Shown: positions 45,443 through 62,337 of the stretch, piece by piece
Position numbering within the stretch: the first letter of the stretch is position 1
Layout: each line of letters begins with the position of its first letter
DNA from: Candidatus Pacearchaeota archaeon
GTDB taxonomy: Archaea; Nanobdellota; Nanobdellia; Pacearchaeales; GW2011-AR1
Direction: 5' to 3'
Assembly (NCBI GenBank): GCA_018303825.1
Contig: JAGVXK010000020.1
Span: forward strand, 8,569 to 72,568
Length of the DNA: 64,000 bases
Notes under the pieces: model-generated
Told to the model about the DNA's origin: nothing
The model's input: only the letters and a program-made list of their open reading frames with translations
Databases searched by the model: none
Program-made: the position numbers and the translations under genes

Positions 45443-46021
45443 TTATTTCTGCAGGGCCATTCTTTGCGGATGACTCTTTTGTTTTTCTAATTTTGCCACA
45501 TGCTTTTGCTCTTTGGCTTTTGCCTCAAATTCTTTGCTTCTCTGCTCTGCTGTTGCTGTCTCTTTTTCCTTTTCATCTTTCTTCTGCTCTTCAGTCTTTC
45601 CTTCCTGTGCTGCTGGAACTTCCCTCTTTTTTTCTTTCTTATCTTCCTTTGCCTCTTCCTTCTTTTCAAATCTCTTCAATAATTTCTCATGCTTTGCTTT
45701 CAAAAATTTGACATGTGCTGGAAAATCAACTAATTCAACTCTTACTATGTTATCCTCTTTTACTGCTCTTACTTTTACTTTTGCTGGAGGATTTGCTCTT
45801 CCTCTGAACCAAAGTTCATTGTTTGAATATACATCCAACCTGACATTATTTACATCTCTATCAAGCACTTTCATGTGCTTGGCAATGAACTTCTTTATGG
45901 CTTTTATTGCCTTGCCAGTTCTCTCATACATTGGAGCTTTAAGCCACTCTTTTCTCAATGGAATTATATATTCTCTTTCCAGCTTTTTCGTTTCTGCTTT
46001 TGGTGTTTTTGTTTCTGCCAT
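45443..46021 (-). CDS. rpl31e: Ribosomal protein eL31 with ~100-aa Lys/Glu-rich C-terminal extension
   Basis: EREYIIPLRKEWLKAP...RTGKAIKAIKKFIAKHMK...VRLD...NELWFRG core; ATG at 46021 (track start is TTG). Confidence 0.85.
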   Translation of the reverse strand: MAETKTPKAETKKLEREYIIPLRKEWLKAPMYERTGKAIKAIKKFIAKHMKVLDRDVNNVRLDVYSNNELWFRGRANPPAKVKVRAVKEDNIVRVELVDFPAHVKFLKAKHEKLLKRFEKKEEAKEDKKEKKREVPAAQEGKTEEQKKDEKEKETATAEQRSKEFEAKAKEQKHVAKLEKQKSHPQRMALQK

Positions 46022-46022
46022 T

Positions 46023-46292
46023 TTATACAACCTCTGCTTCTAGCAAATCGATACCTATAATTCTTTTAATCCCTGCTAGGATGCTAGTTAAATCCTTTTC
46101 TGGAGCGATTATTTCGACTTTTGGTTTTTCAGTCTTTTGCAATATTAATCTTGCATTTTCATAGTTAAAAACAGCAGACATTCTATCGTATGAGATAGCA
46201 GTAGGATTTAGAACCCTGCCAACTACCCGATAAAATCTATCATATATTGTCTTGCTCAAGTTTATTGTCGTTACGTTTATTGTGTTTTTCAT
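46023..46292 (-). CDS. Hypothetical 89-aa protein embedded in the eS19-eL39-eL31 operon
   Basis: Tightly packed between eL39 and eL31; no motif recognised. Confidence 0.5.
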   Translation of the reverse strand: MKNTINVTTINLSKTIYDRFYRVVGRVLNPTAISYDRMSAVFNYENARLILQKTEKPKVEIIAPEKDLTSILAGIKRIIGIDLLEAEVV

Positions 46293-46293
46293 T

Positions 46294-46494
46294 TTATCCT
46301 AGATGGGTCTTCTTGGCTCTCCTTGGTTTTATTCTTAGTTTTGTTCTTCTCCAATGTCTTCTTTTCTTGGTAATCTGAGATGGATGAACTCTTTTTCCCT
46401 GGCCGTGCTTTCGCAGAACTGCCCAGAACGGAGCCCATTTTGTCCTTCTGTTGTGGACGCCAAGCTTTACTTTTTTTTGAAGTGCCTGTTTCAT
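46294..46494 (-). CDS. rpl39e: Ribosomal protein eL39
   Basis: ...HNRRTKWAPFWAVLRK...KKRRHWRRTKL...; ATGA overlap with eS19. Confidence 0.85.
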   Translation of the reverse strand: MKQALQKKVKLGVHNRRTKWAPFWAVLRKHGQGKRVHPSQITKKRRHWRRTKLRIKPRRAKKTHLG

Positions 46495-46910
46495 TTTGCT
46501 TCTCCTGCAAGATTTTCAAGAAATTCCTTTCCTTTAGCTGTTAATTGCCTGCCTGAATGCTTTGCTTTTACTTTTTCTGTTAATCCAGCGGAATCTGCCT
46601 GTTGTAATATCTTTCTTATTATTTTTCCTCCAGCCTTGTAAAAATGCGCTGGTTTTGCTCCTTTTCCTTTTCTGGAGCCATACCTTGTTCTCAATCTTTC
46701 TACACCAACTACTTTTTTTACATAAATCTGTCTTAATATAGAAGCAGCTCTTTTATACCAAAAGTCTGAATCAATATTTGGTCTTTTCTTGCTTGCTCCT
46801 GTTTTTACAAAATCAACCCACTCTGGCTTCTTGAATTCTGGAAGTTTCTTTAAAGCCTCAGCTAGAGAACTATTATACTTACCAGGCTCAATCATTCTTA
46901 TGTCTGTCAT
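46491..46910 (-). CDS. rps19e: Ribosomal protein eS19
   Basis: PEWVDFVKTGASKKRPN..DFWYKRAASILRQIY...VGVERLRTRYGS; ATG at 46910 (track start is GTG). Confidence 0.85.
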   Translation of the reverse strand: MTDIRMIEPGKYNSSLAEALKKLPEFKKPEWVDFVKTGASKKRPNIDSDFWYKRAASILRQIYVKKVVGVERLRTRYGSRKGKGAKPAHFYKAGGKIIRKILQQADSAGLTEKVKAKHSGRQLTAKGKEFLENLAGEAK

Positions 46911-47043
46911 CTTAATGTAGTAGGCCGTGCTTTGCAACACTAGATCGGCTCAAGGCCGCTAGACCCAACACTCCTTAAGAAATTTGCTTTATAAATCTAT
47001 GGTTCTGGCGTGTATTTATTGCATCTTCGGGACTTAAATCTAT

Positions 47044-48106
47044 TTAAAGAAGATACCTAGAAATAGAAACCTGCTTCAATCTTTCTTTTTTGACTTTTTG
47101 AATCTCCTTTAATATTTTCTTCCTAAGATTAAATGAATTTGACCATTTAACATATGCTTGCCAACCTTGACAGCTTTCCATTAATTTCCAATAAGAGATC
47201 TCGCACTTTTTCAGTTCGTTTATCCTTTTTTGCATTTTTCTTATATTTCTCTTCCTTACCAATCTGAAACGATAAAAATTTCTGAATCCAACAAAGTCAG
47301 TCCCCCTTGAAAGAGGAATTATCCTTGATTTTTGAGGATGAAGTTCTATCTTCAATCTTTCTCTCAAAAAGGGGTCAATTTGTTCTTTCCATATTTCTAA
47401 TTGTCTGTCAGATTCATGCAAAATAACAAAATCATCAACATAACGAATGTAGTACTTAGCTTTCAAAATGTGTTTAACGTAATAATCTAACTTATTAAGA
47501 TAAACATTAGCGAAGAATTGAGAAGTTAAATTGCCCAAAGGCATACCCTTCGGGCGTCCGCCCCCCCCCCGATTGGACTGTATTGCTAAGAATTCGGCGA
47601 ATCAGCCAAATAACTTTTTCATCAGCTATTTTTCTTCTAATTATCTTTAAAAGAATTTCATGATCAACCTCTTTAAAATAATGCCTTATATCTGCTTTAA
47701 GGCAGAAAGCATTTCTCGTAAGGTTTTTTGTAATTTTTCTTGAAAATAAGTTAAATCTGCTCAAAGCAAACAAATTGCCCTTACCAATCTGATTGGCGCA
47801 TGAATCATAAATAAATTCTCTCTCAAACATGCGACTTATAACTAAGATGATAGCGTGATGAACAACTCTATCCCTAAAATCTGATTTAGAGATTACTCTT
47901 GTTTTCGGGTCTCTCAAAACAAAAGTTGTTAATGGCCTTAGTTTATAGGTTTTATTTTTTAATTCATAATGCAAAGCAAGAAGATTTTCTATTAGGTGCT
48001 TTTCAAATTCAACAACATCTTTATGCAAGGTTTTTCCTTTTCTTGCTTTTCTCCAAGCAAGAATCAAGTTTTCCATAGAGTAGATCTTACAAAATAAACT
48101 TTCCAT
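47044..48106 (-). CDS. DGR-type reverse transcriptase, split into two frames at a G10 (coding-strand) homopolymer
   Basis: Track ORFs 47507-48106 and 47044-47544 join across 47561-47570. Motifs LRDPKTRVI, C-L-K-ADIRHYF, GMPLGNLTSQFFANVYL ([LIV]GxxxSQ), YVDD. Confidence 0.85.
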
Positions 48107-48116
48107 ATTATGATAA

Positions 48117-48131
48117 TTCTGGTAGCCAGAA
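48117..48131 (-). other. Hairpin TTCTGG-TAG-CCAGAA between TR and the RT start codon
   Basis: 6-bp perfect stem, 3-nt loop; lies 2 nt from the TR 3' end (coding orientation) and 10 nt from the RT ATG. Confidence 0.55.
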
Positions 48132-48132
48132 C

Positions 48133-48223
48133 TATTCCAAAGACAGAGCCATTATCATTGTTCAGGTTCCTGTTGTTGCAGTTGAAGTTAGACCTGTTGT
48201 TCCTGTCAAGCCTGTTCAACCAG
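48133..48223 (-). repeat. DGR template repeat (TR)
   Basis: Ungapped 91-nt alignment to 48548-48638; 77 identities; all 14 differences are A on the coding strand of TR. Confidence 0.88.
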
Positions 48224-48328
48224 GCGTTATAGTCAATTTATCTTCATGTCACCACTGCTTCACGTATGTTGCAGTTGAATTTTATGGCTTAAAATAAACC
48301 TAAATATGCGCTAATAAACTAACTTGTA

Positions 48329-48347
48329 GTTCTGGTGCTACCAGAAC
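48329..48347 (-). other. Hairpin GTTCTGGT-GCT-ACCAGAAC downstream of the target gene stop / upstream of TR
   Basis: 8-bp perfect stem; stem sequence related to the 48117-48131 hairpin. Confidence 0.5.
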
Positions 48348-48382
48348 CAATTTGATAAGAAATAAGGATTTTATAAATCTGA

Positions 48383-49210
48383 TTACTTTTTAAAGAAATC
48401 AGCAACCTTTCTCAGTGAAGCTGTGCCTCTCTTACCTTCAATAACACCATCTATTATAGTTAAATATTGTTTTGCCTGTCTCGGAGTATAACCACGAACT
48501 TTTGGCTCGTTAATTTGGCGCGAAGTGCCTTCGGCACTTTCCACAGAAACCCCAAAGACAGAGCCATAATCATCGCTCAGGCTCCTGTCGTTGCAGATGA
48601 AGGCAGACCTGTAGTTCCTGTCAAGCCCGTCCAACCAGTGTCCTCTTGCATAATCTTCCCCAGTTATTCTTGGCAAATAAACAGTAACTTCTGGCAATCT
48701 CAAATTCTCTGGCAATTCATTTCTTAAAAATAATCCATATCTATTAGCTAATTCTGGACTTTCAGCTTTCCATCTTATTGTTGGATCATCAGCAAAACTA
48801 TCTGTTGGAACTGGATGAGTTTTAGCCTGTCCAAGATTCAAAACCCTTTTTTGTTCTAAAGGTTTTATTTCATCTTTTTCAGCTATCTGCCTAAGTACTT
48901 GAGTAAATGGTCTCTTGCCTTTTCTTATTTCATCAGTTAAATAAAATTCGCCTGTTCTCTGAGCTTCTACAGCTTGTTTTGCATAGGGAATAAGCGGATT
49001 AAATTCTGCTCTTGCCAGCAATATTGCTCCATCAACAACATTAGAATCTTCTGCTGTCCAAGCTCCTCCTTCAAAATGTGTTTGATCATTAACTCCTCTT
49101 TCTAATCTATCTTCAATAAGTTCTCTTCCTGTAGAAACACGCTTATTTGCATTCTTAGCTTGTGCTAAACAATATGCCCAATTTCCTTGGTCAATTCTTT
49201 GTAATTTCAT
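48383..49210 (-). CDS. DGR target (variable) protein, 275 aa, VR near the C-terminus
   Basis: Contains the VR (WLDGLDRNYRSAFICNDRSLSDDYGSVFG); no N-terminal hydrophobic signal visible. Confidence 0.85.
   Translation of the reverse strand: MKLQRIDQGNWAYCLAQAKNANKRVSTGRELIEDRLERGVNDQTHFEGGAWTAEDSNVVDGAILLARAEFNPLIPYAKQAVEAQRTGEFYLTDEIRKGKRPFTQVLRQIAEKDEIKPLEQKRVLNLGQAKTHPVPTDSFADDPTIRWKAESPELANRYGLFLRNELPENLRLPEVTVYLPRITGEDYARGHWLDGLDRNYRSAFICNDRSLSDDYGSVFGVSVESAEGTSRQINEPKVRGYTPRQAKQYLTIIDGVIEGKRGTASLRKVADFFKK
48523..48539 (-). other. Hairpin AAGTGCC-GAA-GGCACTT (coding strand) 9 nt downstream of VR
   Basis: 7-bp GC-containing perfect stem, 3-nt loop, inside the coding region just after the adenine-free GGCTCTGTCTTTGG end of VR. 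Confidence 0.6.
48548..48638 (-). repeat. DGR variable repeat (VR)
   Basis: See TR; in frame within 48383-49210. Confidence 0.88.
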
Positions 49211-49287
49211 ATTTTTTATAGAAATAATACCTATTTAAACCTTTCGCTATTGTTACTATCTAATAGTTAATACAACTCATCTTACTG

Positions 49288-49542
49288 TTATACTTTATCT
49301 TTATTTTTTCCAGCTTGTCGTCTTAAAATTATAGTAAATCCGATTATTCTGAACTCGCAATGAACATCCAGCTTGGATTGAATGGATTTTGCCATTTCCT
49401 GGATTGAATCTCTGTCTCTTCCAGAGGATTTGAGGACAGCGATTCTTATTCTTTTGTGGGTTTTGAGAGCATTATTTAATCCTTCTATTACTCCTCCCGT
49501 AATGCCATTCTTTCCTATTTGGAATTTTGTTTCTGTTATCAT
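49288..49542 (-). CDS. YhbY/CRM-domain RNA-binding protein
   Basis: FQIGKNGITGGVIEGLNNALKTHKRIRIAVLK pattern. Confidence 0.7.
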   Translation of the reverse strand: MITETKFQIGKNGITGGVIEGLNNALKTHKRIRIAVLKSSGRDRDSIQEMAKSIQSKLDVHCEFRIIGFTIILRRQAGKNKDKV

Positions 49543-51184: not shown

Positions 51185-51892
51185 CTAATTAGCCCTTAAT
51201 TTTGCCAGAGCTTCATTTTGAATTTGCCTAATCCTTTCTCTAGTCACATGGTAGATTTTTCCAATTTCTTCAAGTGTTTTTTTCTTCCCATTTAGTCTAA
51301 GAAATCTTAGCTCCAAAACCTTTCTTTGTTGGGGGTTCAATTTTTTAAGAAGATTATGCACAAAAGCAGAATCAGATCTTTCACATATATCATCGTAGGG
51401 CATTCTTGCGTGAATATCTGTTATTAATGTCTCCATTGACTCCCCATCATCGCCGGTTGGTTCATCTATGGAAACAAATGTAACTGGTCCGTCTTTTGGA
51501 TGATATTTTGCCAGATATCTTCTTCTTTCTTTTTTCAATGCATTAAGAATATTTTTTCTTACATAATACCTTGCATAGGTACTCAATTTTGCTTTTTTCT
51601 TATTGTATGGATTATACCTATCAATTCCTTCCATTAATCCTTGATTGCCCTCGCTTATTAAGTCCAATAGTGGAACCCCTCTATAGGTATATTTTTTAGC
51701 GACATTCACAACAAGCTTCAAATTGCGATTAATTAATTCTCTTCTCGCATTTCTGTTCCCCCTCATCTTTTTTACAGCGAGTGCAAATTCTTCCTCTCTT
51801 GTTAAAAGAGGCCCAGATATCTGGGAAAGATAGACATCTAATCCATCATATGCCCTAGACCTTCTTGCTCCATCATATAATATTTTTGACAT
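51185..51892 (-). CDS. Bacterial-type sigma-70 family RNA polymerase sigma factor
   Basis: Region 1.2/2: YLSQISGPLLTREEEFALA...LINRNLKLVVNVAKKY...LLDLISEGNQGLMEGIDRYNP...KLSTYARYYVRKNI. Region 4: QRKVLELRF...TLEEIGKIYHVTRERIRQIQNEALAKLR. Confidence 0.85.
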   Translation of the reverse strand: MSKILYDGARRSRAYDGLDVYLSQISGPLLTREEEFALAVKKMRGNRNARRELINRNLKLVVNVAKKYTYRGVPLLDLISEGNQGLMEGIDRYNPYNKKKAKLSTYARYYVRKNILNALKKERRRYLAKYHPKDGPVTFVSIDEPTGDDGESMETLITDIHARMPYDDICERSDSAFVHNLLKKLNPQQRKVLELRFLRLNGKKKTLEEIGKIYHVTRERIRQIQNEALAKLRAN

Positions 51893-51973
51893 AAAAATTG
51901 ACAAGAATTGGAGTTTAAAAACCTTATAGCCTAGTTTTGCTACTGATTTGGGAGAAAATAACAGCAGATAAGA

Positions 51974-57260: not shown

Positions 57261-57791
57261 ATCTGATGTTGATGTGCTTAGATACAAATATCTTAGATAT
57301 AAATATCTTTGGTAATCAAATGTCAGAATAAGAGATAATCAAATAAAACAAGCAGAAGAGAATCATGTTATAATTCCTGGACTTTGAACCAAGAATTGTA
57401 TTTTATGTTTTCATATATTTTTATGTATATTTCTACGCGCAAATAATTTAAAATTATTATGAGGCTTTTAGTAGATGCATGCTGAACCCCTCGTTTTCTC
57501 GGGGCGTACACATCATCTCTATCAACGTCATCTTCTTTGACGGCCTTAGTTGTCTCGTCTTGCGGACGGCTTCGCACTTAGATGCTTTCAGTGCTTATCC
57601 GTAAATGCGTAGCTGCGCGGCCTGCTCATAACAACCGCTATACCAGAGGCATCCGATTACCGTTCCTCTCGTACTAGATAATCGTTCCACTCAGACAACA
57701 GCGCGCCTAGTAGATATCATACATACTGTCTCGCGTATATACTCAAAACTTATTTATTTGTTTTGTATGGACTATACCTTCACCCTTGTCA

Positions 57792-57871
57792 ATGTTTAAA
57801 CCGAAATAATTATCTTATACGCCTACTTTGATAAGCGATGTACGAGCTAACTACTTAATCTAACCCTTGAA
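57792..57871. repeat. ~80-nt repeat, copy 1 (inside the 23S domain V insertion)
   Basis: ATGTTTAAACCGAAATAATTATCTTATACGCCTACTTTGATAAGCGATGTACGAGCTAACTACTTAATCTAAC, roughly 85-90 percent identical by eye to 58169-58250. Confidence 0.75.
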
Positions 57872-58168
57872 TGAGGGGATTCGCGTTTTACCTATCTTTG
57901 TAAAAGATAAGTCTTAGGAATTTAATCCTAAAGTCTCTACGGGGTCAATTCTAAGCGAACCTTACGGTTCTCTTACAAACTCTCCCTTGCATTTCTGCTT
58001 AGGGCTAGTTAAAACGACTTCCCTCGGGGTTACCATCTTATTACAGTATTGAATAAGAAGACTTCACCGATATGAGCGAATTTTATTTTTCATGAAATTG
58101 CTTTCATGCTACGCCGCGATGTGAATTATTGTTTGTTTTTCGTGGTTTGCGTTCTTGTTTGTGTTATT

Positions 58169-58250
58169 ATGTTTAAACTGAAATAATTATCTTATACATC
58201 TACTTTGATAAGCGATGTTAAAGCTAATTACTTGTAATCTAAACTATGTG
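58169..58250. repeat. ~80-nt repeat, copy 2 (same insertion, direct orientation)
   Basis: ATGTTTAAACTGAAATAATTATCTTATACATCTACTTTGATAAGCGATGTTAAAGCTAATTACTTGTAATCTAAAC. Confidence 0.75.
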
Positions 58251-58985
58251 TTTTCCATTGAGATTTACATTTGTCATAACGTTTTATGTTTGCTTGCTAA
58301 TTCTTGGTTTGGTTCTCTAATTAGACTGGATTGTCTTTCGACGTATTTAACCCAGCTAACGATCCCTTTTAATGCGTGAACTCCGACACCCTTGGTTGCT
58401 AATGCACAACCAGGATAGGAAGAGCCGACAGCGATGTACCAAACCGCGCCGTCAATATGGACTATCGGGCGCGACAAGCCTGTTATCCTTGAGGTACCTT
58501 TTCTGCCACACTCAGGTCCTAGTAAAAGACCATGAGGGGTCGCTAAGCCCGACTTTCATCTCTGCATCTTTTGCTGTGCAAGATACAGTCAGGTAAACTT
58601 TTGCCTTCGCACTCAACTCCAGATTTCCAACCTGGATGAGTTTACCATTAGGCCCTACAGATATCTTTTCTGTAGGGTGCCGCCCCAGCCAAACTGCCCG
58701 CCTGCTGGTGTCCTCTCTCGAGTAAGCAGCTTTAAGGAAAATAAGTAGTGTTACATGGTTGCTCCCCTTTCGCCGAAGCTAAGGTTCTAAGCTCCTACCT
58801 ACGCTATGCATTCCCCTTAAAGCTACAACAACAAGTTGCAGTAAAGGTCTACAAGGTCTCCGCTTCCCACTAGGCGTCACCGGCATTTTCACCGGTAAGT
58901 GAGTTCAGAAGGTTCTGGTTAGGGACAGTGACCATCACGTTGATCCATTCATGCACGTCACCATTCAGATGACAAGGCATTACGC

Positions 58986-59183
58986 TCATTCTGGTAAATT
59001 GATTTTTACATCGAGTGTTACCGAAGTTCCTGAATTTCTTGCAGCTTCTAAAGTCTTCTCTTGTAAAGCACTCATTGGTATCAACAACATAACTGGCGCA
59101 CTGCCAGTTGTTTTAACCTCATAAGTGCTATGCGCTTCAGATGCAATTCTTCGAACTTCAATTCTGCAATTATATTCAGTCAT
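58986..59183 (-). CDS. Hypothetical 65-aa ORF at the 3' end of the 23S intron
   Basis: ATG-initiated; its TGA stop is the last three intron nucleotides; no motif recognised. Confidence 0.3.
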   Translation of the reverse strand: MTEYNCRIEVRRIASEAHSTYEVKTTGSAPVMLLIPMSALQEKTLEAARNSGTSVTLDVKINLPE

Positions 59184-59355
59184 TCTTAATCCTTAAATTA
59201 AGAGTATTTAAAAATTTGTATACTAAAATAAAAGTTGTATTTTTCACAACTTCTTTTTCTCGCGAAAAAGATCGGAACATATCTTCGTAAGCAAACCAAG
59301 GTTTTCTTACAAACTTTCCTTGTTGTTACGTCTAACGTATGTTCTCTGAGGATTT

Positions 59356-60111
59356 TCAATACGACTGATATCTTACATTTACCTTATATTTTTCGAGTAA
59401 ATTCTGTTTTCTACGACAATTGAAATAAAAACCATTTTCAACAAAGCTTCTTAAATTTATATTTATCTGAAAACAATCTTTTTCATTAATACTTCTATAT
59501 TTCTTTTTCAAGGTCTTTTTACCAACCTTTACTCCGAAATTTCGCAACAACGAAATAAAATCATCAATCCAGTCTCCAGAATTAATAAACCCTAAAGAAA
59601 ATCTTTGCCAACCGAACTTGTTAGTTCCAGTGCTTATGTATCCATCCGTATCCATTAAACCTGCTACAAATGCAGAAAATATCTCTTTTTCTGAGTTTGT
59701 AACAAATTCAGGAATCTTAGATTTATTATTTGTTTGAAGAGTTAAACATTCAAATAAACTTTTTCCATAAACTCTGTATTTATAAAGTATAGTTTTATTT
59801 GGTATTATTTCTTTTAAAAATCCTTTTTTATTGAATAATTTATTTACAATAAAGCATGTTTTTTCGATTACATCTTTATCTCCAGAGACTATACAAAAGC
59901 CATAGCTTTTTGATTTAAAGCAACAGCCATCTCCTAAATAAACTCCAAATAAATAAGATTTTTCAATCTCATTAGAAAGCTGATTATATTGAATCTTTCC
60001 TGCTTGGTTGTCTGCAGTCATCTTATTTTCACGCCAACAAACTTTAAAAATTAAGTTGTCGTCGTAAAGTGACATTCTCAGATGTTCCAGCATATAGTTA
60101 GATTTTCTCAT
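59356..60111 (-). CDS. Double-motif LAGLIDADG homing endonuclease
   Basis: LFGVYLGDGC and FVAGLMDTDGY motifs about 100 aa apart; located inside the 23S intron. Confidence 0.85.
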   Translation of the reverse strand: MRKSNYMLEHLRMSLYDDNLIFKVCWRENKMTADNQAGKIQYNQLSNEIEKSYLFGVYLGDGCCFKSKSYGFCIVSGDKDVIEKTCFIVNKLFNKKGFLKEIIPNKTILYKYRVYGKSLFECLTLQTNNKSKIPEFVTNSEKEIFSAFVAGLMDTDGYISTGTNKFGWQRFSLGFINSGDWIDDFISLLRNFGVKVGKKTLKKKYRSINEKDCFQININLRSFVENGFYFNCRRKQNLLEKYKVNVRYQSY

Positions 60112-62053
60112 GGATCTCGCATATGTTTATTTCAATTTTCAAATATGTCTTTTTGTTTATTTTGCCTGTCTATGAAGCTTGAGCAAAATTAATTTTTATT
60201 TTAATTTATTTCTTAATCTCGTAAGGCAGTTTAGTTTTCTATTCAACCTTAAGAGCCTCATAGTTAGGCCCGCCGTTTCACGGGTCTTAGCCCTCTTGAA
60301 CGAGGGTTTGAAACACCGCGACTGGGCAGGACTCACCGATTATATAAATCCTTTCAGATTGGCAATCGGCTACGTTTTTGATAAACAGTCGGACGGTCCT
60401 TGTTACTGAGATCTACAAACGCCTTCGATAAATCAAAGACATCCATAGACACCCCTTCTACCGAAGCTAGGGGGCCAATATGCCGAGTTCCCTTAACCAG
60501 GTTATACCTTTCACGTCTTAGCCTTTTCAGCTAGAGCACCAGTGTCAGTTCTTGGTACGGCTTCTATGTAAAGTACACAAATTTTTCAAGGACTCTAGGA
60601 GTCAGCAAATTTATCCAAACAATTCAACTAGATTAAAGCATTACGCTCCCTAATTTTCTTGCCTAGAAGTTCTCTCGAACCTCCGCTTATCCCCAAGCAC
60701 ATCGTGCAATGTAATACATAGAAAGTTCTGGAATATTAACCAGATGTCCAATCGCCAACCGCAGTTAAGAGTTGACTTAGGAGCCGACTAACCCTTGGTT
60801 AAACAATAGTGCCAAGGAAACCTTGCTCTTTCGACGCTATCCGTTCTCAGGATAATCTGATCTTACTAGCACCACGATACTCATTACTTTTCGCTCCATA
60901 CTTTCTTTCGAAAATACTTCTACGCAAAAAGTACGCCTGCCTACCAGAACACTCTTGCGAGTGCCTCTGGAGTGTCGGTAATGTGTTTAGCCCTGTCCAT
61001 TTTCCCTGCTTCAAACCTCGATAGGTGAGCTGTTACGCTTTCTTTAAATGGTGGCTGCTTCTAAGCCTACATCCCTACTGTCTCAGGTTTAAAACTAGGT
61101 TTGTTACACTTAACACATATTTTGGGACCTTAACTCCAGTCTCCCTTGTTCGGGTCTTCGAACAGTACCTTACGCACTGCCCGCCATTCCCGTTGATTAC
61201 AGTCAGCAAGTTCAGAGTTGGAATCGAACTCCGTAGCCATATAGGCTCTGCAAGTTCCATCCGTGCTTTACCCCGCTGACAAGCTCAAACGAGACTATAC
61301 TTAGGCATATTTCGACAGGAACCAGCCATCGCCAGATTAGATAGGCTTTTCACCCCCACTCGCAGATCATCCAAATGCATGTGCACAATACTGGTTCGAA
61401 CCTCCATTCTCCTTTCGGAGAACTTCGTTCTGCCCACGAGTAGATCATCTGGCTTCGGGTCATGCGCATGTGACTAACGCTCTTTCGAACTCGCTTTCGC
61501 TACGGCTTCATAAATTAACCTCGCCACATGCGAATACTCCGTGGCCTGTTTTTCAAAACGTACGCTACAACACCTTAATGCTGTAGCCAGCTGTAACTGC
61601 TAGATTTCAAGTCTTTTAACCCTCTATTAAGAGTGCTTTTCAGCTTTCCCTCGCGGTACTAAGTTCGCTATCGGACTTGAATTTATATTTAGGGTTGGCA
61701 GTTAATCCTGCCGTCTTCAGACCTCCTATCTAGGGGGCCCTACTCTTTTGGAATATAGCATATCACGTTAGAGTACGGGACTATCACCCTTTAAAGTGCT
61801 TCATTCCAGAAAACTTTCTCTCCATGACTTAGCCTTAACTTCCACCACATCTCTACCTTCTTTTCAAAAGGAGATTCGGTTTGCCCTGATCCCTTTTCGC
61901 TCGCTGCTAATGGGGGAATCATTTTTATTTTCTCTTCCTGCTGGTACTAAGATGTTTCAGTTCCCAGCGTATGCTTATATCTCTATATTCTATTACTAGA
62001 ACGTTGTCGAATTCGGAAATCTTGGGTTCAAAGCCCGCATGCGGCTACCCCAA

Positions 62054-62084
<31 letters not shown>

Positions 62085-62337
62085 AATTCAAACCAAGCTA
62101 TCCGTCTAGCAGTGTATGTAGTAATTCCTCAACAACTGACACGAAATCAGTTGTCTTGTCAAAATCAAATTATCCACGCCTGATTCTCTCCTGCTTGCTT
62201 CATTGAATATTATCTCTGCGTGATAAGCCTCCGATGGAGACTCACCACTCTCGCCAAATCCGGGACCTTGTGAGTGCCGGACCCTTGGGAACTTAATCCC
62301 AGACGATCTCGGTAATTTTAAAGTCTTTTCTTGACTC

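Follow-up and report, generated by a model that had tools for sequence, protein, structure and literature searches.

Does the reverse transcriptase (RT) gene that lies next to ribosomal protein genes in this DNA from a Pacearchaeota (DPANN) archaeon belong to a diversity-generating retroelement (DGR), and is that element complete? The sequence-only reading of the window (the whole 64-kb stretch of DNA analysed) had answered yes to both. It described an RT, a non-coding template repeat (TR), a target gene bearing a variable repeat (VR) and no avd gene, set between an eS19-eL39-eL31 operon and a yhbY-like gene. The element is almost certainly a DGR: the affinity of the RT to bRT, the divergence at adenines only, an AvpA-like target, a hairpin after the VR and the same architecture in relatives all support this part of the proposal. 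The description as complete is not borne out by the assembled sequence, in which the RT is split by a frameshift in a homopolymer tract. Pfam matches identify the neighbouring S19e, L31e and YhbY/CRM genes, and eL39 is without Pfam confirmation (Table 1).

Table 1. Features of the retroelement and its neighbours (window coordinates).
Feature	Position	Strand	Basis and remarks
L31e gene	45443-46030		Pfam
S19e gene	46491-46940		Pfam
RT, C-terminal part	47044..47560	-	ORF and PDB alignment; GMPLGNLTSQ, YVDD, thumb
Homopolymer tract	47561..47570	-	G10 on the coding strand (C10 on the plus strand); frameshift site; encodes a Gly run in the loop before motif 4
RT, N-terminal part	47571..48106	-	Motifs 1-3; includes R70, aligned with bRT R74
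Post-TR element GTTCTGGCTACCAGAATT	48115..48132	-	Complementary to the RT-16 5' strand (about 48335-48348); closes the TR-containing loop
Template repeat (TR)	48133..48223 (core 48137-48223)	-	Non-coding, 31 adenines; alignment and repeat search
RT-16 RNA (Rfam RF03019)	48224..48346	-	Structured leader; abuts the TR 5' end; cmscan
TATA-like box TTTATAAA	48370..48377	-	About 22-29 nt upstream of the first RT-16 helix base; putative promoter of the DGR RNA
Target (variable-protein) gene	48383..49210	-	ORF, 275 aa; AvpA-like C-type lectin fold in the model
GC-rich hairpin AAGTGCC-GAA-GGCACTT	48523..48539	-	7-bp stem inside the target CDS; encodes SAEGT
Variable repeat (VR)	48548..48638 (conservative core 48552-48638)	-	Target codons 191-221 of 275; alignment and repeat search
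TATA-like box TTTAAATA	49233..49240	-	Read from the sequence; 23-30 nt upstream of the target ATG
YhbY/CRM gene	49288-49542		Pfam

Scripted pairwise alignment of the TR and the VR, both on the minus strand, reproduces the gapless 91-nt repeat (offset 415) and its 14 adenine-only mismatches as first noticed. Read from TR to VR on that strand, the changes are nine A>G, four A>T and one A>C, 14 of 14 at TR adenines. Because the TR has 31 adenines in 91 nt, the probability that all 14 fall on an A is about 2.8e-7. An independent repeat search also recovers the pair, as an 87-nt core with 87% identity and 11 mismatches, and self-BLAST of the whole window yields no other A-biased repeat pair. In frame, the TR translates as WLNRLDRNNRSNFNCNNRNLNNDNGSVFGI and the VR as WLDGLDRNYRSAFICNDRSLSDDYGSVFGV, and a recount gives the same numbers as before, 11 AAY codons in the TR with nine changed in the VR. 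The TR adenines are concentrated at codon positions 1 and 2 (16/13/2 at positions 1/2/3), and for this reason no stop codon can be reached by A>N substitution. About 5.6e16 protein variants are theoretically possible. The VR coincides with the hypervariable block of the family protein alignment. Its divergence from the TR is confined to TR adenines, from which we conclude that mutagenic retrohoming has acted on the target gene.

The last three mismatches (GGAATA in the TR, GGGGTT in the VR) look like a fixed difference of the IMH/IMH* type rather than the product of mutagenesis, because at this position the VR of relatives invariably reads GG and the TR invariably AA. The conservative figure is 11 of 11 mismatches at TR adenines over 87 nt. 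The homology ends on its 3' side in an A-free, IMH-like segment, GGCTCTGTCTTTGG. A search for related loci with an 8-sequence subset of a 20-sequence alignment found the 87-nt TR/VR architecture with A-only mismatches in L004/L013, L007, L008 and L009, and a 149-nt pair in L012. In a further relative, 85% identical (L105), the TR and RT seem to be absent, an observation that is uninformative because the scaffold contains N gaps.

The RT also groups with those of DGRs. Its best PDB match, 8ub7_A, is a reverse transcriptase of 328 aa that aligns over the full length with E = 1.8e-40, whereas group II RTs reach only 2e-17. R74, I181 and Q187 in the numbering of this entry stand exactly at the places given for bRT in PMC7826257, from which the role of R74 is also taken; length and residue numbering thus fit an attribution of 8ub7_A to the Bordetella phage bRT. 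The YVDD box and the signature motif GMPLGNLTSQFFANVYL named in the sequence-only reading are both present, in the second of the two RT ORFs that the frameshift separates. The motif LGNLTSQ fits the [I/V/L]GxxxSQ signature described for DGR RTs (PMC7826257), not QGxxxSP.

Could this instead be the RT of a group II intron, a retron or an Abi/DRT defence system, with the 91-nt repeat an ordinary duplication? The top NCBIfam model is a group II intron RT/maturase, weaker matches are Drt3a, AbiA and retron RT, and some database sources label the homologues 'retron-type RT'. However, every NCBIfam match lies far below its cut-off (140.7 bits against 300 for the group II model), no DGR RT family is among the NCBIfam matches of the RT, and the maturase assignment was discarded as classification evidence. 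The PDB match attributed to bRT surpasses that to any group II RT by about 23 orders of magnitude in E-value. The SQ motif, the confinement of mismatches to adenines with a codon-position bias, and an Rfam result in which intron RNA domains are absent and an RT-16 RNA appears instead also speak against this alternative, to which we give a negligible probability. Strong homologues of the RT number more than 7,600. When IMG/VR was scanned with the RT alignment, the matches were all distant phage relatives (33-46% identity). An A-biased repeat pair is present in 73 of the 80 IMG/VR loci that hold a related RT; these relatives are informative on membership of the DGR clade, not on the homopolymer tract discussed below.

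The target protein has no match in Pfam, NCBIfam or PDB sequence searches. Its homologues form only 20 clusters, named hypothetical protein of Candidatus Pacearchaeota, and structure prediction followed by Foldseek was the only informative approach. The AF2 model (pLDDT 81.8) has a sole significant match in the PDB, 5ioo_A (E = 6e-6, prob 1.0, TM 0.69 on the target), the C-type lectin DGR variable protein of a Nanoarchaeota; all matches ranked after it have E > 1. The structural alignment with this protein, AvpA, has only 12% identity, and neither of the two AvpA sequence motifs (GxxVVVYAH, HPxxxPFxG) is clearly recognisable. The VR is internal, spans 30 codons near the C-terminus and is followed by about 54 aa modelled as two helices. 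In the model the target thus has an AvpA-like C-type lectin fold, an internal VR and a C-terminal two-helix extension.

Counted from the end of the 91-nt VR, the hairpin inside the target gene begins after 8 nt, and counted from the 87-nt core after 12 nt. Ten of 12 family loci have a hairpin at this position, with stems that differ by compensatory changes (GTGCC, GCGCC, GCGCT, CGGCAGC, CTGCGGAC and GTGGC). It corresponds to the DGR target-site hairpin described in PMC3240598 and to the in-ORF hairpin of AvpA (PMC5006420). The TATA-like box upstream of the target ATG is a putative promoter of a leaderless mRNA, a role suggested by general archaeal promoter geometry.

The cassette had been considered very compact. 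Its intergenic space is filled by an RT-16 RNA that was overlooked earlier and that cmscan detects over the full model (positions 1-158); the score of 78.5 bits (E = 6e-12) exceeds the gathering threshold of 50. RT-16 occurs in 14 related loci and abuts the TR in every related locus where both were mapped. A TATA-like box, TTTTTAAA or TTTATAAA, lies at the same distance from RT-16 in L004, L007, L008 and L009, and its recurrence suggests that it could serve as the promoter of the DGR RNA.

The minimum free energy fold of 48104-48352 (z = -3.6) includes a helix between the 5' strand of RT-16 and the post-TR element, which encloses the TR. This closing helix covaries between lineages (TTCTGGTAGC/GCTACCAGAA, TTGTCTTAGGG/CCCTAAGACAA, ACCTCGACC/GGTCGAGGT and others). 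With the TR ends as anchors, cognate duplexes have a mean of -16.4 kcal/mol and non-cognate duplexes -8.9 kcal/mol. The partner strand of RT-16, past the TR, lies outside the Rfam match. A 16-nt partial copy of the TR within RT-16 (48267-48282) is conserved only in the closest relative and was for this reason treated as chance.

The RNA agrees with the RF03019 family in its full-length match above the gathering score and in its position beside an RT gene. The original description of RT-16 (Weinberg et al. 2017, PMC5737381) assigned no role to it and, for RT motifs apart from RT-10, went no further than the speculation that they might belong to DGRs. Here, in contrast, RT-16 is part of the cassette in this and the 14 related loci, abutting the DGR TR where that was mapped, and its 5' strand has a covarying partner that RF03019 does not include.

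Avd is required in the Bordetella system. No avd-like ORF had been visible on first inspection, and none is found by ORF listing or by Pfam searches of the neighbouring ORFs; between target and TR there is no ORF of at least 40 aa except one that merely translates the TR. A factor that substitutes for Avd may be encoded elsewhere. The lack of avd sets the element apart from the prototype DGR of Bordetella phage BPP-1 (mtd-avd-TR-brt), and the lack of a nearby Avd-like protein, together with an RT frameshifted at poly-G, from the AvpA DGRs.

In other respects the element resembles both systems. It shares with the BPP-1 DGR the adenine-only mismatches, an A-free 3' end of the homology, a GC hairpin downstream of the VR (PMC3240598), a structured RNA close to the TR and, if 8ub7_A is bRT, the closest solved RT, with equivalents of R74 and I181 and the SQ motif (PMC7826257). 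RT-16 lies upstream of the TR here and the gap between TR and RT is only 26 nt, whereas RT-10/Spacer lies between TR and brt in the phage (PMC5737381). A cellular protein takes the place of the phage tail fibre as target, the hairpin lies within the ORF, and its loop has 3 nt (GAA) in place of the 4-nt GRNA of phage DGRs (PMC3240598).

The likeness extends further with the AvpA DGRs of Nanoarchaeota and other DPANN archaea (Paul et al. 2015, 2017; Handa et al. 2016, PMC5006420; 5IOO). Both have a DPANN host, the order target-TR-RT, a C-type lectin target of the AvpA subclass (known here from the predicted structure), an internal, AAY-rich VR of about 27-30 codons followed by a two-helix tail of about 50 aa, and a hairpin within the CDS (PMC5006420). 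In contrast to this structural agreement, the target has no sequence-level match to AvpA and falls in a separate, small family. According to PMC6349945, which cites Paul 2015/2017 and Handa 2016, DGRs are prevalent among Nanoarchaeota, Pacearchaeota and Woesearchaeota, and the element therefore adds one member to a known class. Its only potentially new aspect is a possible phase-variable switch in the RT.

The RT is not translatable as one protein from the assembled sequence. It is split into two ORFs (47507-48106 and 47044-47544) at a run of ten G, the longest G/C run in the window. Removing one G produces a single RT ORF of 353 aa, and tracts of G9 or G12 are in frame. An independent assembly (L001), otherwise identical over 8.2 kb, has G11 and is likewise out of frame. 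The G10 fragment occurs on nine contigs from several sources and the G11 fragment on one contig; fragments of this RT are already in GenBank (AQS32202/AQS32203, 'uncultured archaeon'). The protein collection searched contains no in-frame, full-length copy.

No class of base call is more prone to error in sequencing and assembly than homopolymer length, and runs of at least 10 bases are affected. The true tract could be G9 or G12, in which case the RT would be intact and the DGR complete and active. The disagreement between two assemblies of the same organism, G10 against G11 in otherwise identical sequence, fits such an artefact. However, both lengths are out of frame, G10 is repeated across its nine contigs from several sources, an in-frame version of this RT was never assembled as far as the protein collection shows, and other lineages repeat a single out-of-frame length in independent assemblies (G8 on five contigs, G9 on 13). 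We consider an artefact improbable, and the frameshift is probably real in the population consensus.

The same RT loop is occupied by pure G/C tracts of 8-20 nt in relatives, and their frame varies. In-frame tracts are G20, G16, G13, G13, G12, G11 and C10, and out-of-frame tracts are C11 and the G8 and G9 just mentioned; any ratio of the two is a biased estimate because the in-frame relatives were selected as full-length proteins. Synonymous sites between these RTs are saturated (pS >= 0.71), and pN is about 0.2 in both halves. A search with the C-terminal half returned, among the best 120 matches, 92 proteins of 150-170 aa that start exactly at MPLGN. The conserved methionine of GMPLGN could suggest a separate C-terminal polypeptide. 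This candidate was rejected, as the residue gives no specific support because it is conserved also in RTs without the tract and in phage DGR RTs.

Does the frameshift then mark a dead or decaying DGR? The RT would be a pseudogene with a permanent frameshift, the VR a frozen relic and the tract a non-regulatory weak point in a tolerant loop. All copies of this RT found in the collection are split, split RTs are numerous, and in the sister strain L007 a 23-nt out-of-frame deletion has removed the tract. The VR sequence is the same on 14 of 14 target-bearing contigs, and at the consensus level this lineage shows no sign of current diversification. Against decay, both RT halves are intact ORFs apart from the frameshift and retain every catalytic motif, and in more than 90 other clusters the C-terminal fragment likewise runs full length (148-170 aa). 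Pure tracts persist across lineages despite the saturation of synonymous sites, although GGG accounts for only 15% of the Gly codons in the window. The sister lineage, whose alleles comprise an in-frame G20 as well as the out-of-frame deletion, shows recent VR turnover: L104 and L007 are 99.4% identical over 4.8 kb, and 14 of their 27 differences fall in the VR, 13 of these 14 at TR-A positions. In the lineage studied here, the alleles seen are only the out-of-frame G10 and G11. We regard decay as unlikely, if less so than an artefact. A reversible or recoded switch in the tract, as opposed to a mark of decay, is a serious candidate, to which we would give slightly less than an even chance.

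Such a switch would have precedents in homopolymer phase variation in Campylobacter, Neisseria, Haemophilus and Bordetella (PMC8355987, PMC2831843). The contingency loci of these bacteria likewise combine a poly-G/C tract of 8-20 nt inside a gene, a small, AT-rich genome, a tract length that is polymorphic between otherwise identical sequences, and in-frame and out-of-frame states among close relatives. They differ in that the host here is an archaeon, the gene encodes a mutator-type enzyme and not a surface structure, and switching is so far a candidate. No report of a poly-G tract in a DGR RT was found in the literature searched, a search that did not extend to Paul et al. 2017.

We propose the following working order for the element. 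Starting from the 5' end of RT-16, about 25 nt after the TATA-like box, transcription would proceed through the TR. Pairing of the RT-16 5' strand with the post-TR segment would bring the 3' end of the TR beside the RT-16 core, where the RT may bind and prime. cDNA synthesis with misincorporation opposite A would follow, and the cDNA could then replace the VR, with the A-free 3' homology GGCTCTGTCTTTGG and the hairpin as guides. Either Avd is not needed for these steps or an unrecognised factor may substitute for it. Because the RT is frameshifted, the element is presumably OFF or weakly expressed at present. A return to ON could occur by slippage of the tract from G10 to G9 or G12; alternatively, transcriptional or ribosomal slippage might allow read-through. 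Taken as a whole, a chromosomal DGR of DPANN-archaeal type on the minus strand, including this mechanism and an OFF or weak state, is in our view a highly probable account of the locus. More tentatively, and with the odds against it, we speculate on two points jointly: that DPANN DGR RTs carry a conserved hypermutable poly-G (sometimes poly-C) tract before motif 4 as a reversible on/off switch or slippage throttle for targeted hypermutation, here OFF, and that RT-16 is the dedicated DGR RNA scaffold of this lineage, which clamps the TR between its own 5' strand and the complement past the TR and perhaps spares Avd.

The locus provides one more DPANN DGR, now fully dissected into an AvpA-like target, an in-ORF hairpin, an RT-16 leader, a TR and an RT. 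RT-16, functionless in its source paper, can now be tied to DGRs, with a TR-enclosing covarying helix that is testable. The RT-16/TR architecture would guide the in vitro reconstitution of an Avd-less archaeal DGR. Surveys that demand an intact RT ORF will undercount the DGRs of DPANN archaea. If the switch is real, the poly-G tract is a contingency locus that controls a diversity generator. The recurrence of tracts at one RT loop, together with many otherwise intact out-of-frame copies, suggests that symbionts with minimal genomes may gate hypermutation stochastically.

The diversity-generating retroelement (DGR) had been called complete in the sequence-only reading. The reverse transcriptase (RT), the template repeat (TR) and a target gene bearing a variable repeat (VR) are all there, but a frameshift in a homopolymer tract in the loop before RT motif 4 divides the RT into two ORFs. 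Deleting one G from the tract restores a single 353-aa protein, and this joined RT matches Pfam RVT_1. Its closest solved structure is a 328-aa reverse transcriptase (8ub7_A, E 1.8e-40, full length), and group II intron RTs reach only 2e-17. We take 8ub7 to be bRT, the RT of the Bordetella phage BPP-1 DGR, because the chain numbering of R74, I181 and Q187 in the alignment agrees with the bRT positions in PMC7826257; the window RT carries an Arg at the R74 position. The RT had been assigned to the DGR type by motif, and its LGNLTSQ indeed agrees with the [I/V/L]GxxxSQ signature of DGR RTs (PMC7826257). NCBIfam models for group II, Drt, AbiA and retron RTs all scored far under their cut-offs, and these identities were rejected. 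More than 7,600 RT homologues were retrieved at E <1e-40, the best (62-76% identical) from Nanoarchaeota, Pacearchaeota and Woesearchaeota. An A-biased repeat pair lies within 3 kb in 73 of 80 IMG/VR loci with RT relatives (33-46% identity). The reported absence of avd holds: target and TR are not separated by any ORF of at least 40 aa, and Pfam gives no Avd-like match for the neighbouring ORFs.

Features of the DGR cassette and its surroundings (window coordinates)
Feature	Position	Strand	Detail
Target ORF	48383-49210	minus	
VR	48548-48638	minus	codons 191-221 of target ORF
Target-site hairpin	48523-48539	minus	AAGTGCC-GAA-GGCACTT; 8 nt past 91-nt VR, 12 nt past 87-nt core
RT-16 RNA (Rfam RF03019)	48224-48346	minus	78.5 bits vs gathering score 50, E 6e-12
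TR	48133-48223	minus	
RT ORF, N-terminal	47507-48106	minus	
RT ORF, C-terminal	47044-47544	minus	
Frame-change tract	47561-47570	minus	G10 coding (C10 on plus strand)
66-aa ORF	46294-46494	minus	between S19e and L31e
89-aa ORF	46023-46292		same operon as S19e/L31e
Sigma-70-domain ORF	51185-51904	minus	Sigma70_r2 7e-13, r4 2e-18, r1_2 1e-5 (Pfam)
23S rRNA match	57448-62130	minus	4,683 nt vs 2,987-nt model

The ungapped 91-nt alignment of TR and VR (offset 415) was reproduced by a script, and a repeat finder confirmed the pair with an 87-nt core and 11 mismatches. At all 14 mismatches over the 91 nt the intergenic copy has an A (A>G nine times, A>T four times, A>C once), as had been noted; since the TR holds 31 A in 91 nt, the probability of this is ~2.8e-7. 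The count of 11 AAY codons in the TR, read in the VR frame, with nine altered in the VR, was likewise recovered. TR adenines occupy codon positions 1/2/3 in the numbers 16/13/2, a stop codon is unreachable by A>N from any TR codon, and ~5.6e16 protein variants are possible. The final three mismatches (TR GGAATA vs VR GGGGTT) are invariant across relatives and thus look like a fixed IMH/IMH*-type difference between the TR and VR ends, not mutagenesis. When the entire 64-kb window was compared with itself by BLAST, no second A-biased repeat pair appeared. Two related archaeal cassettes, L099 (1497-1580, 2377-2461) and L100 (1427-1531, 2162-2259), have one TR and two VRs in adjacent upstream genes; only one target accompanies the window cassette within the 64 kb.

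The target protein, named by NCBI as a hypothetical protein of Candidatus Pacearchaeota archaeon, has no match in sequence searches of Pfam, NCBIfam and PDB, and its homologues form only 20 clusters among 5.8 billion proteins. In the family alignment the VR block is hypervariable and its flanks are conserved, including SAEG(T/A)S directly after the VR. An AlphaFold2 model built from this alignment (mean pLDDT 81.8, pTM 0.73) has one significant Foldseek match in the PDB, 5ioo_A ('Accommodation of massive sequence variation in Nanoarchaeota by the C-type lectin fold'; E 6e-6, probability 1.0, TM 0.69, 12% identity); all others have E >1. This structure is AvpA, a nanoarchaeal DGR variable protein with an internal VR followed by a tail of ~46 residues predicted as two helices; a hairpin lies inside the coding sequence of this tail (PMC5006420). 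The layout of the window target is alike, with 54 residues after the VR and predicted helices at 243-259 and 264-274; the low-confidence stretch 224-238 of the model overlaps the hairpin codons.

A GC-rich hairpin occupies this post-VR position in 10 of 12 family loci, and its stems vary by compensatory changes (GTGCC, GCGCC, GCGCT, CGGCAGC, CTGCGGAC, GTGGC). BPP-1 retrohoming requires such a hairpin, in which stem structure counts and stem sequence does not; the window hairpin corresponds to it, but with a 3-nt loop instead of GRNA (PMC3240598). Past the hairpin, after a conserved EPKVR, the target tail (residues 236-275 in the window protein) takes two or more unrelated forms, including a YTPRQAKQYLTIIDGVIEGKRGTASLRKVADFFKK-like and a SxxEVLxYxxPxVPxxVxxxFExGL-like form, and differs even between near-identical proteins (from locus L007 and P0003). 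The sequences suggest tail swapping or frameshifting 3' of the hairpin.

The TR had been described as intergenic. It does lie between target and RT, but the 160 nt from the target stop to the TR are not empty and contain an RT-16 RNA. RT-16 is one of nineteen motifs adjacent to RT genes described by Weinberg et al., who tied RT-10 alone to a DGR (the BPP-1 spacer) and speculated that others might act in DGRs (PMC5737381). We found RT-16 in 14 related loci, with its end only a few bases from the start of the TR wherever a TR was also mapped. The segment directly after the TR (48115-48126) can pair with the 5' strand of the first RT-16 helix (~48335-48348), and the complementarity is kept in other lineages with quite different sequences: TTCTGGTAGC / GCTACCAGAA, TCCTAGTCATGCAC / GTGCATACTAGGA, TTGTCTTAGGG / CCCTAAGACAA, ACCTCGACC / GGTCGAGGT and TCTTGGTAA / TTACCAAGA. 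Mean duplex energies are -16.4 kcal/mol for cognate and -8.9 +/- 3.4 for non-cognate pairs, and the cognate partner ranks best in five of eight representative lineages. Folding of the complete RNA (48104-48352) yields -67.6 kcal/mol (z = -3.6) and includes the closing helix. In each of the five aligned loci the helix is preceded, at a distance of 22-29 nt, by a TTTATAAA or TTTTTAAA box; because this box fits archaeal promoter geometry, we infer that the DGR RNA would start at RT-16. RT-16 and the post-TR strand may position the TR 3' end for priming. Separately, 16 nt of RT-16 (48267-48282) are 94% identical to a TR stretch (48174-48189), a similarity that recurs in no relative but the closest, L007, and is thus probably chance.

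The window also encodes archaeal 23S rRNA, the 3' end of 16S rRNA and two tRNAs. Pfam confirmed the S19e, L31e and YhbY/CRM genes named around the cassette and added an NFACT-R gene. The eL39 call is less firm: the 66-aa ORF has no Pfam ribosomal match at E up to 1, but its basic composition and position fit eL39. The 89-aa ORF in the same operon has no family match. A gene 2 kb from the DGR encodes bacterial-type sigma-70 domains within this archaeal chromosome; it is not a chimeric join, since the same gene and context occur in two independent assemblies (L001, L002). The 23S match exceeds its model by a length that implies insertions totalling ~1.7 kb, which may represent one or several rRNA introns.

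L001, another assembly of the window's organism, is identical to the window over 8.2 kb except for a G11 tract. The N-terminal RT fragment occurs with G10 on nine contigs (GenBank AQS32203.1, AQS33209.1, 'uncultured archaeon') and with G11 on one, and the C-terminal fragment on 11. No full-length copy of the window RT exists in a collection of 15 billion proteins (best full-length match 76% identical); in the consensus the gene is thus out of frame. The tract also occurs outside the window's genome: 32 of 113 intact relatives have at least three consecutive Gly in the loop. In the six with at least four Gly whose DNA was obtained, all are pure G runs (G20, G16, G13, G13, G12, G11), and one relative encodes Pro there by C10; GGG makes up only 15% of Gly codons in the window. 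Split relatives break at the same tract, with C11 in L008, G8 in L106-108 (5 contigs, three assemblies), G9 in L109-112 (13 contigs) and, in L007, a deletion of 23 nt that removes the G20 tract present in the 99% identical L097. That the tract shifts the frame only through assembly error is quite improbable, as out-of-frame lengths recur across independent assemblies. The base of the tract can vary while its position is kept. Among the best 120 matches to the RT C-terminal half, 92 are proteins of ~150-170 aa starting exactly at MPLGN, a proportion that is not a frequency since the search is biased to short proteins; the search does show that split RTs with otherwise full-length halves are common. 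Loop variants include T10 directly followed by G12 in locus L102 (~784-805), Pro-coding poly-C in place of poly-G in L103 and L008, and a duplicated GCCCCGAAT...GCCCCCCCCCCGAAT segment in L103 (~1400-1480).

Related cassettes carry 87-nt TR/VR pairs with mismatches at A in 12/13 (L004/L013), 14/15 (L007), 17/17 (L008) and 11/11 cases (L009), and L012 has a 149-nt pair (9/10). L104 and L007, two contigs of a sister lineage, are 99.4% identical over 4,790 nt; of 27 differences, 14 lie inside the 87-nt VR, 13 of them at TR-adenine positions. This clustering points to recent DGR turnover in the sister lineage. In the window's lineage, 14 contigs drawn from several assemblies encode one and the same target protein, and the consensus sequences show no sign of current diversification. 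Simple decay at a fragile position is an unlikely account of the tract, although the static VR and the exclusively out-of-frame alleles observed in this lineage speak for it. With a chance a little short of even, the tract could be a reversible slipped-strand-mispairing switch, or the RT could be expressed via transcriptional or ribosomal slippage: pure tracts persist although synonymous sites between the compared RTs are saturated, both RT halves are intact, and in-frame and out-of-frame alleles occur within the one sister lineage with recent VR turnover. The remaining probability falls to mixtures and unknowns.

The element lacks an intact RT ORF and an accessory gene, but every other sequence-level criterion tested places it in the DGR family, and it is predicted to function like the Bordetella phage DGR. 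The closest described relatives are nanoarchaeal/DPANN DGRs with AvpA-type targets. The element is not new in kind, since DGRs are already known to be prevalent in Nanoarchaeota, Pacearchaeota and Woesearchaeota (PMC6349945), and given the AQS accessions it has possibly been catalogued. The searchable literature, which did not cover Paul et al. 2017, yielded no earlier report of a recurrent tract in a DGR RT. The link of RT-16 to DGRs and the recurrent RT homopolymer tract may be the new parts.
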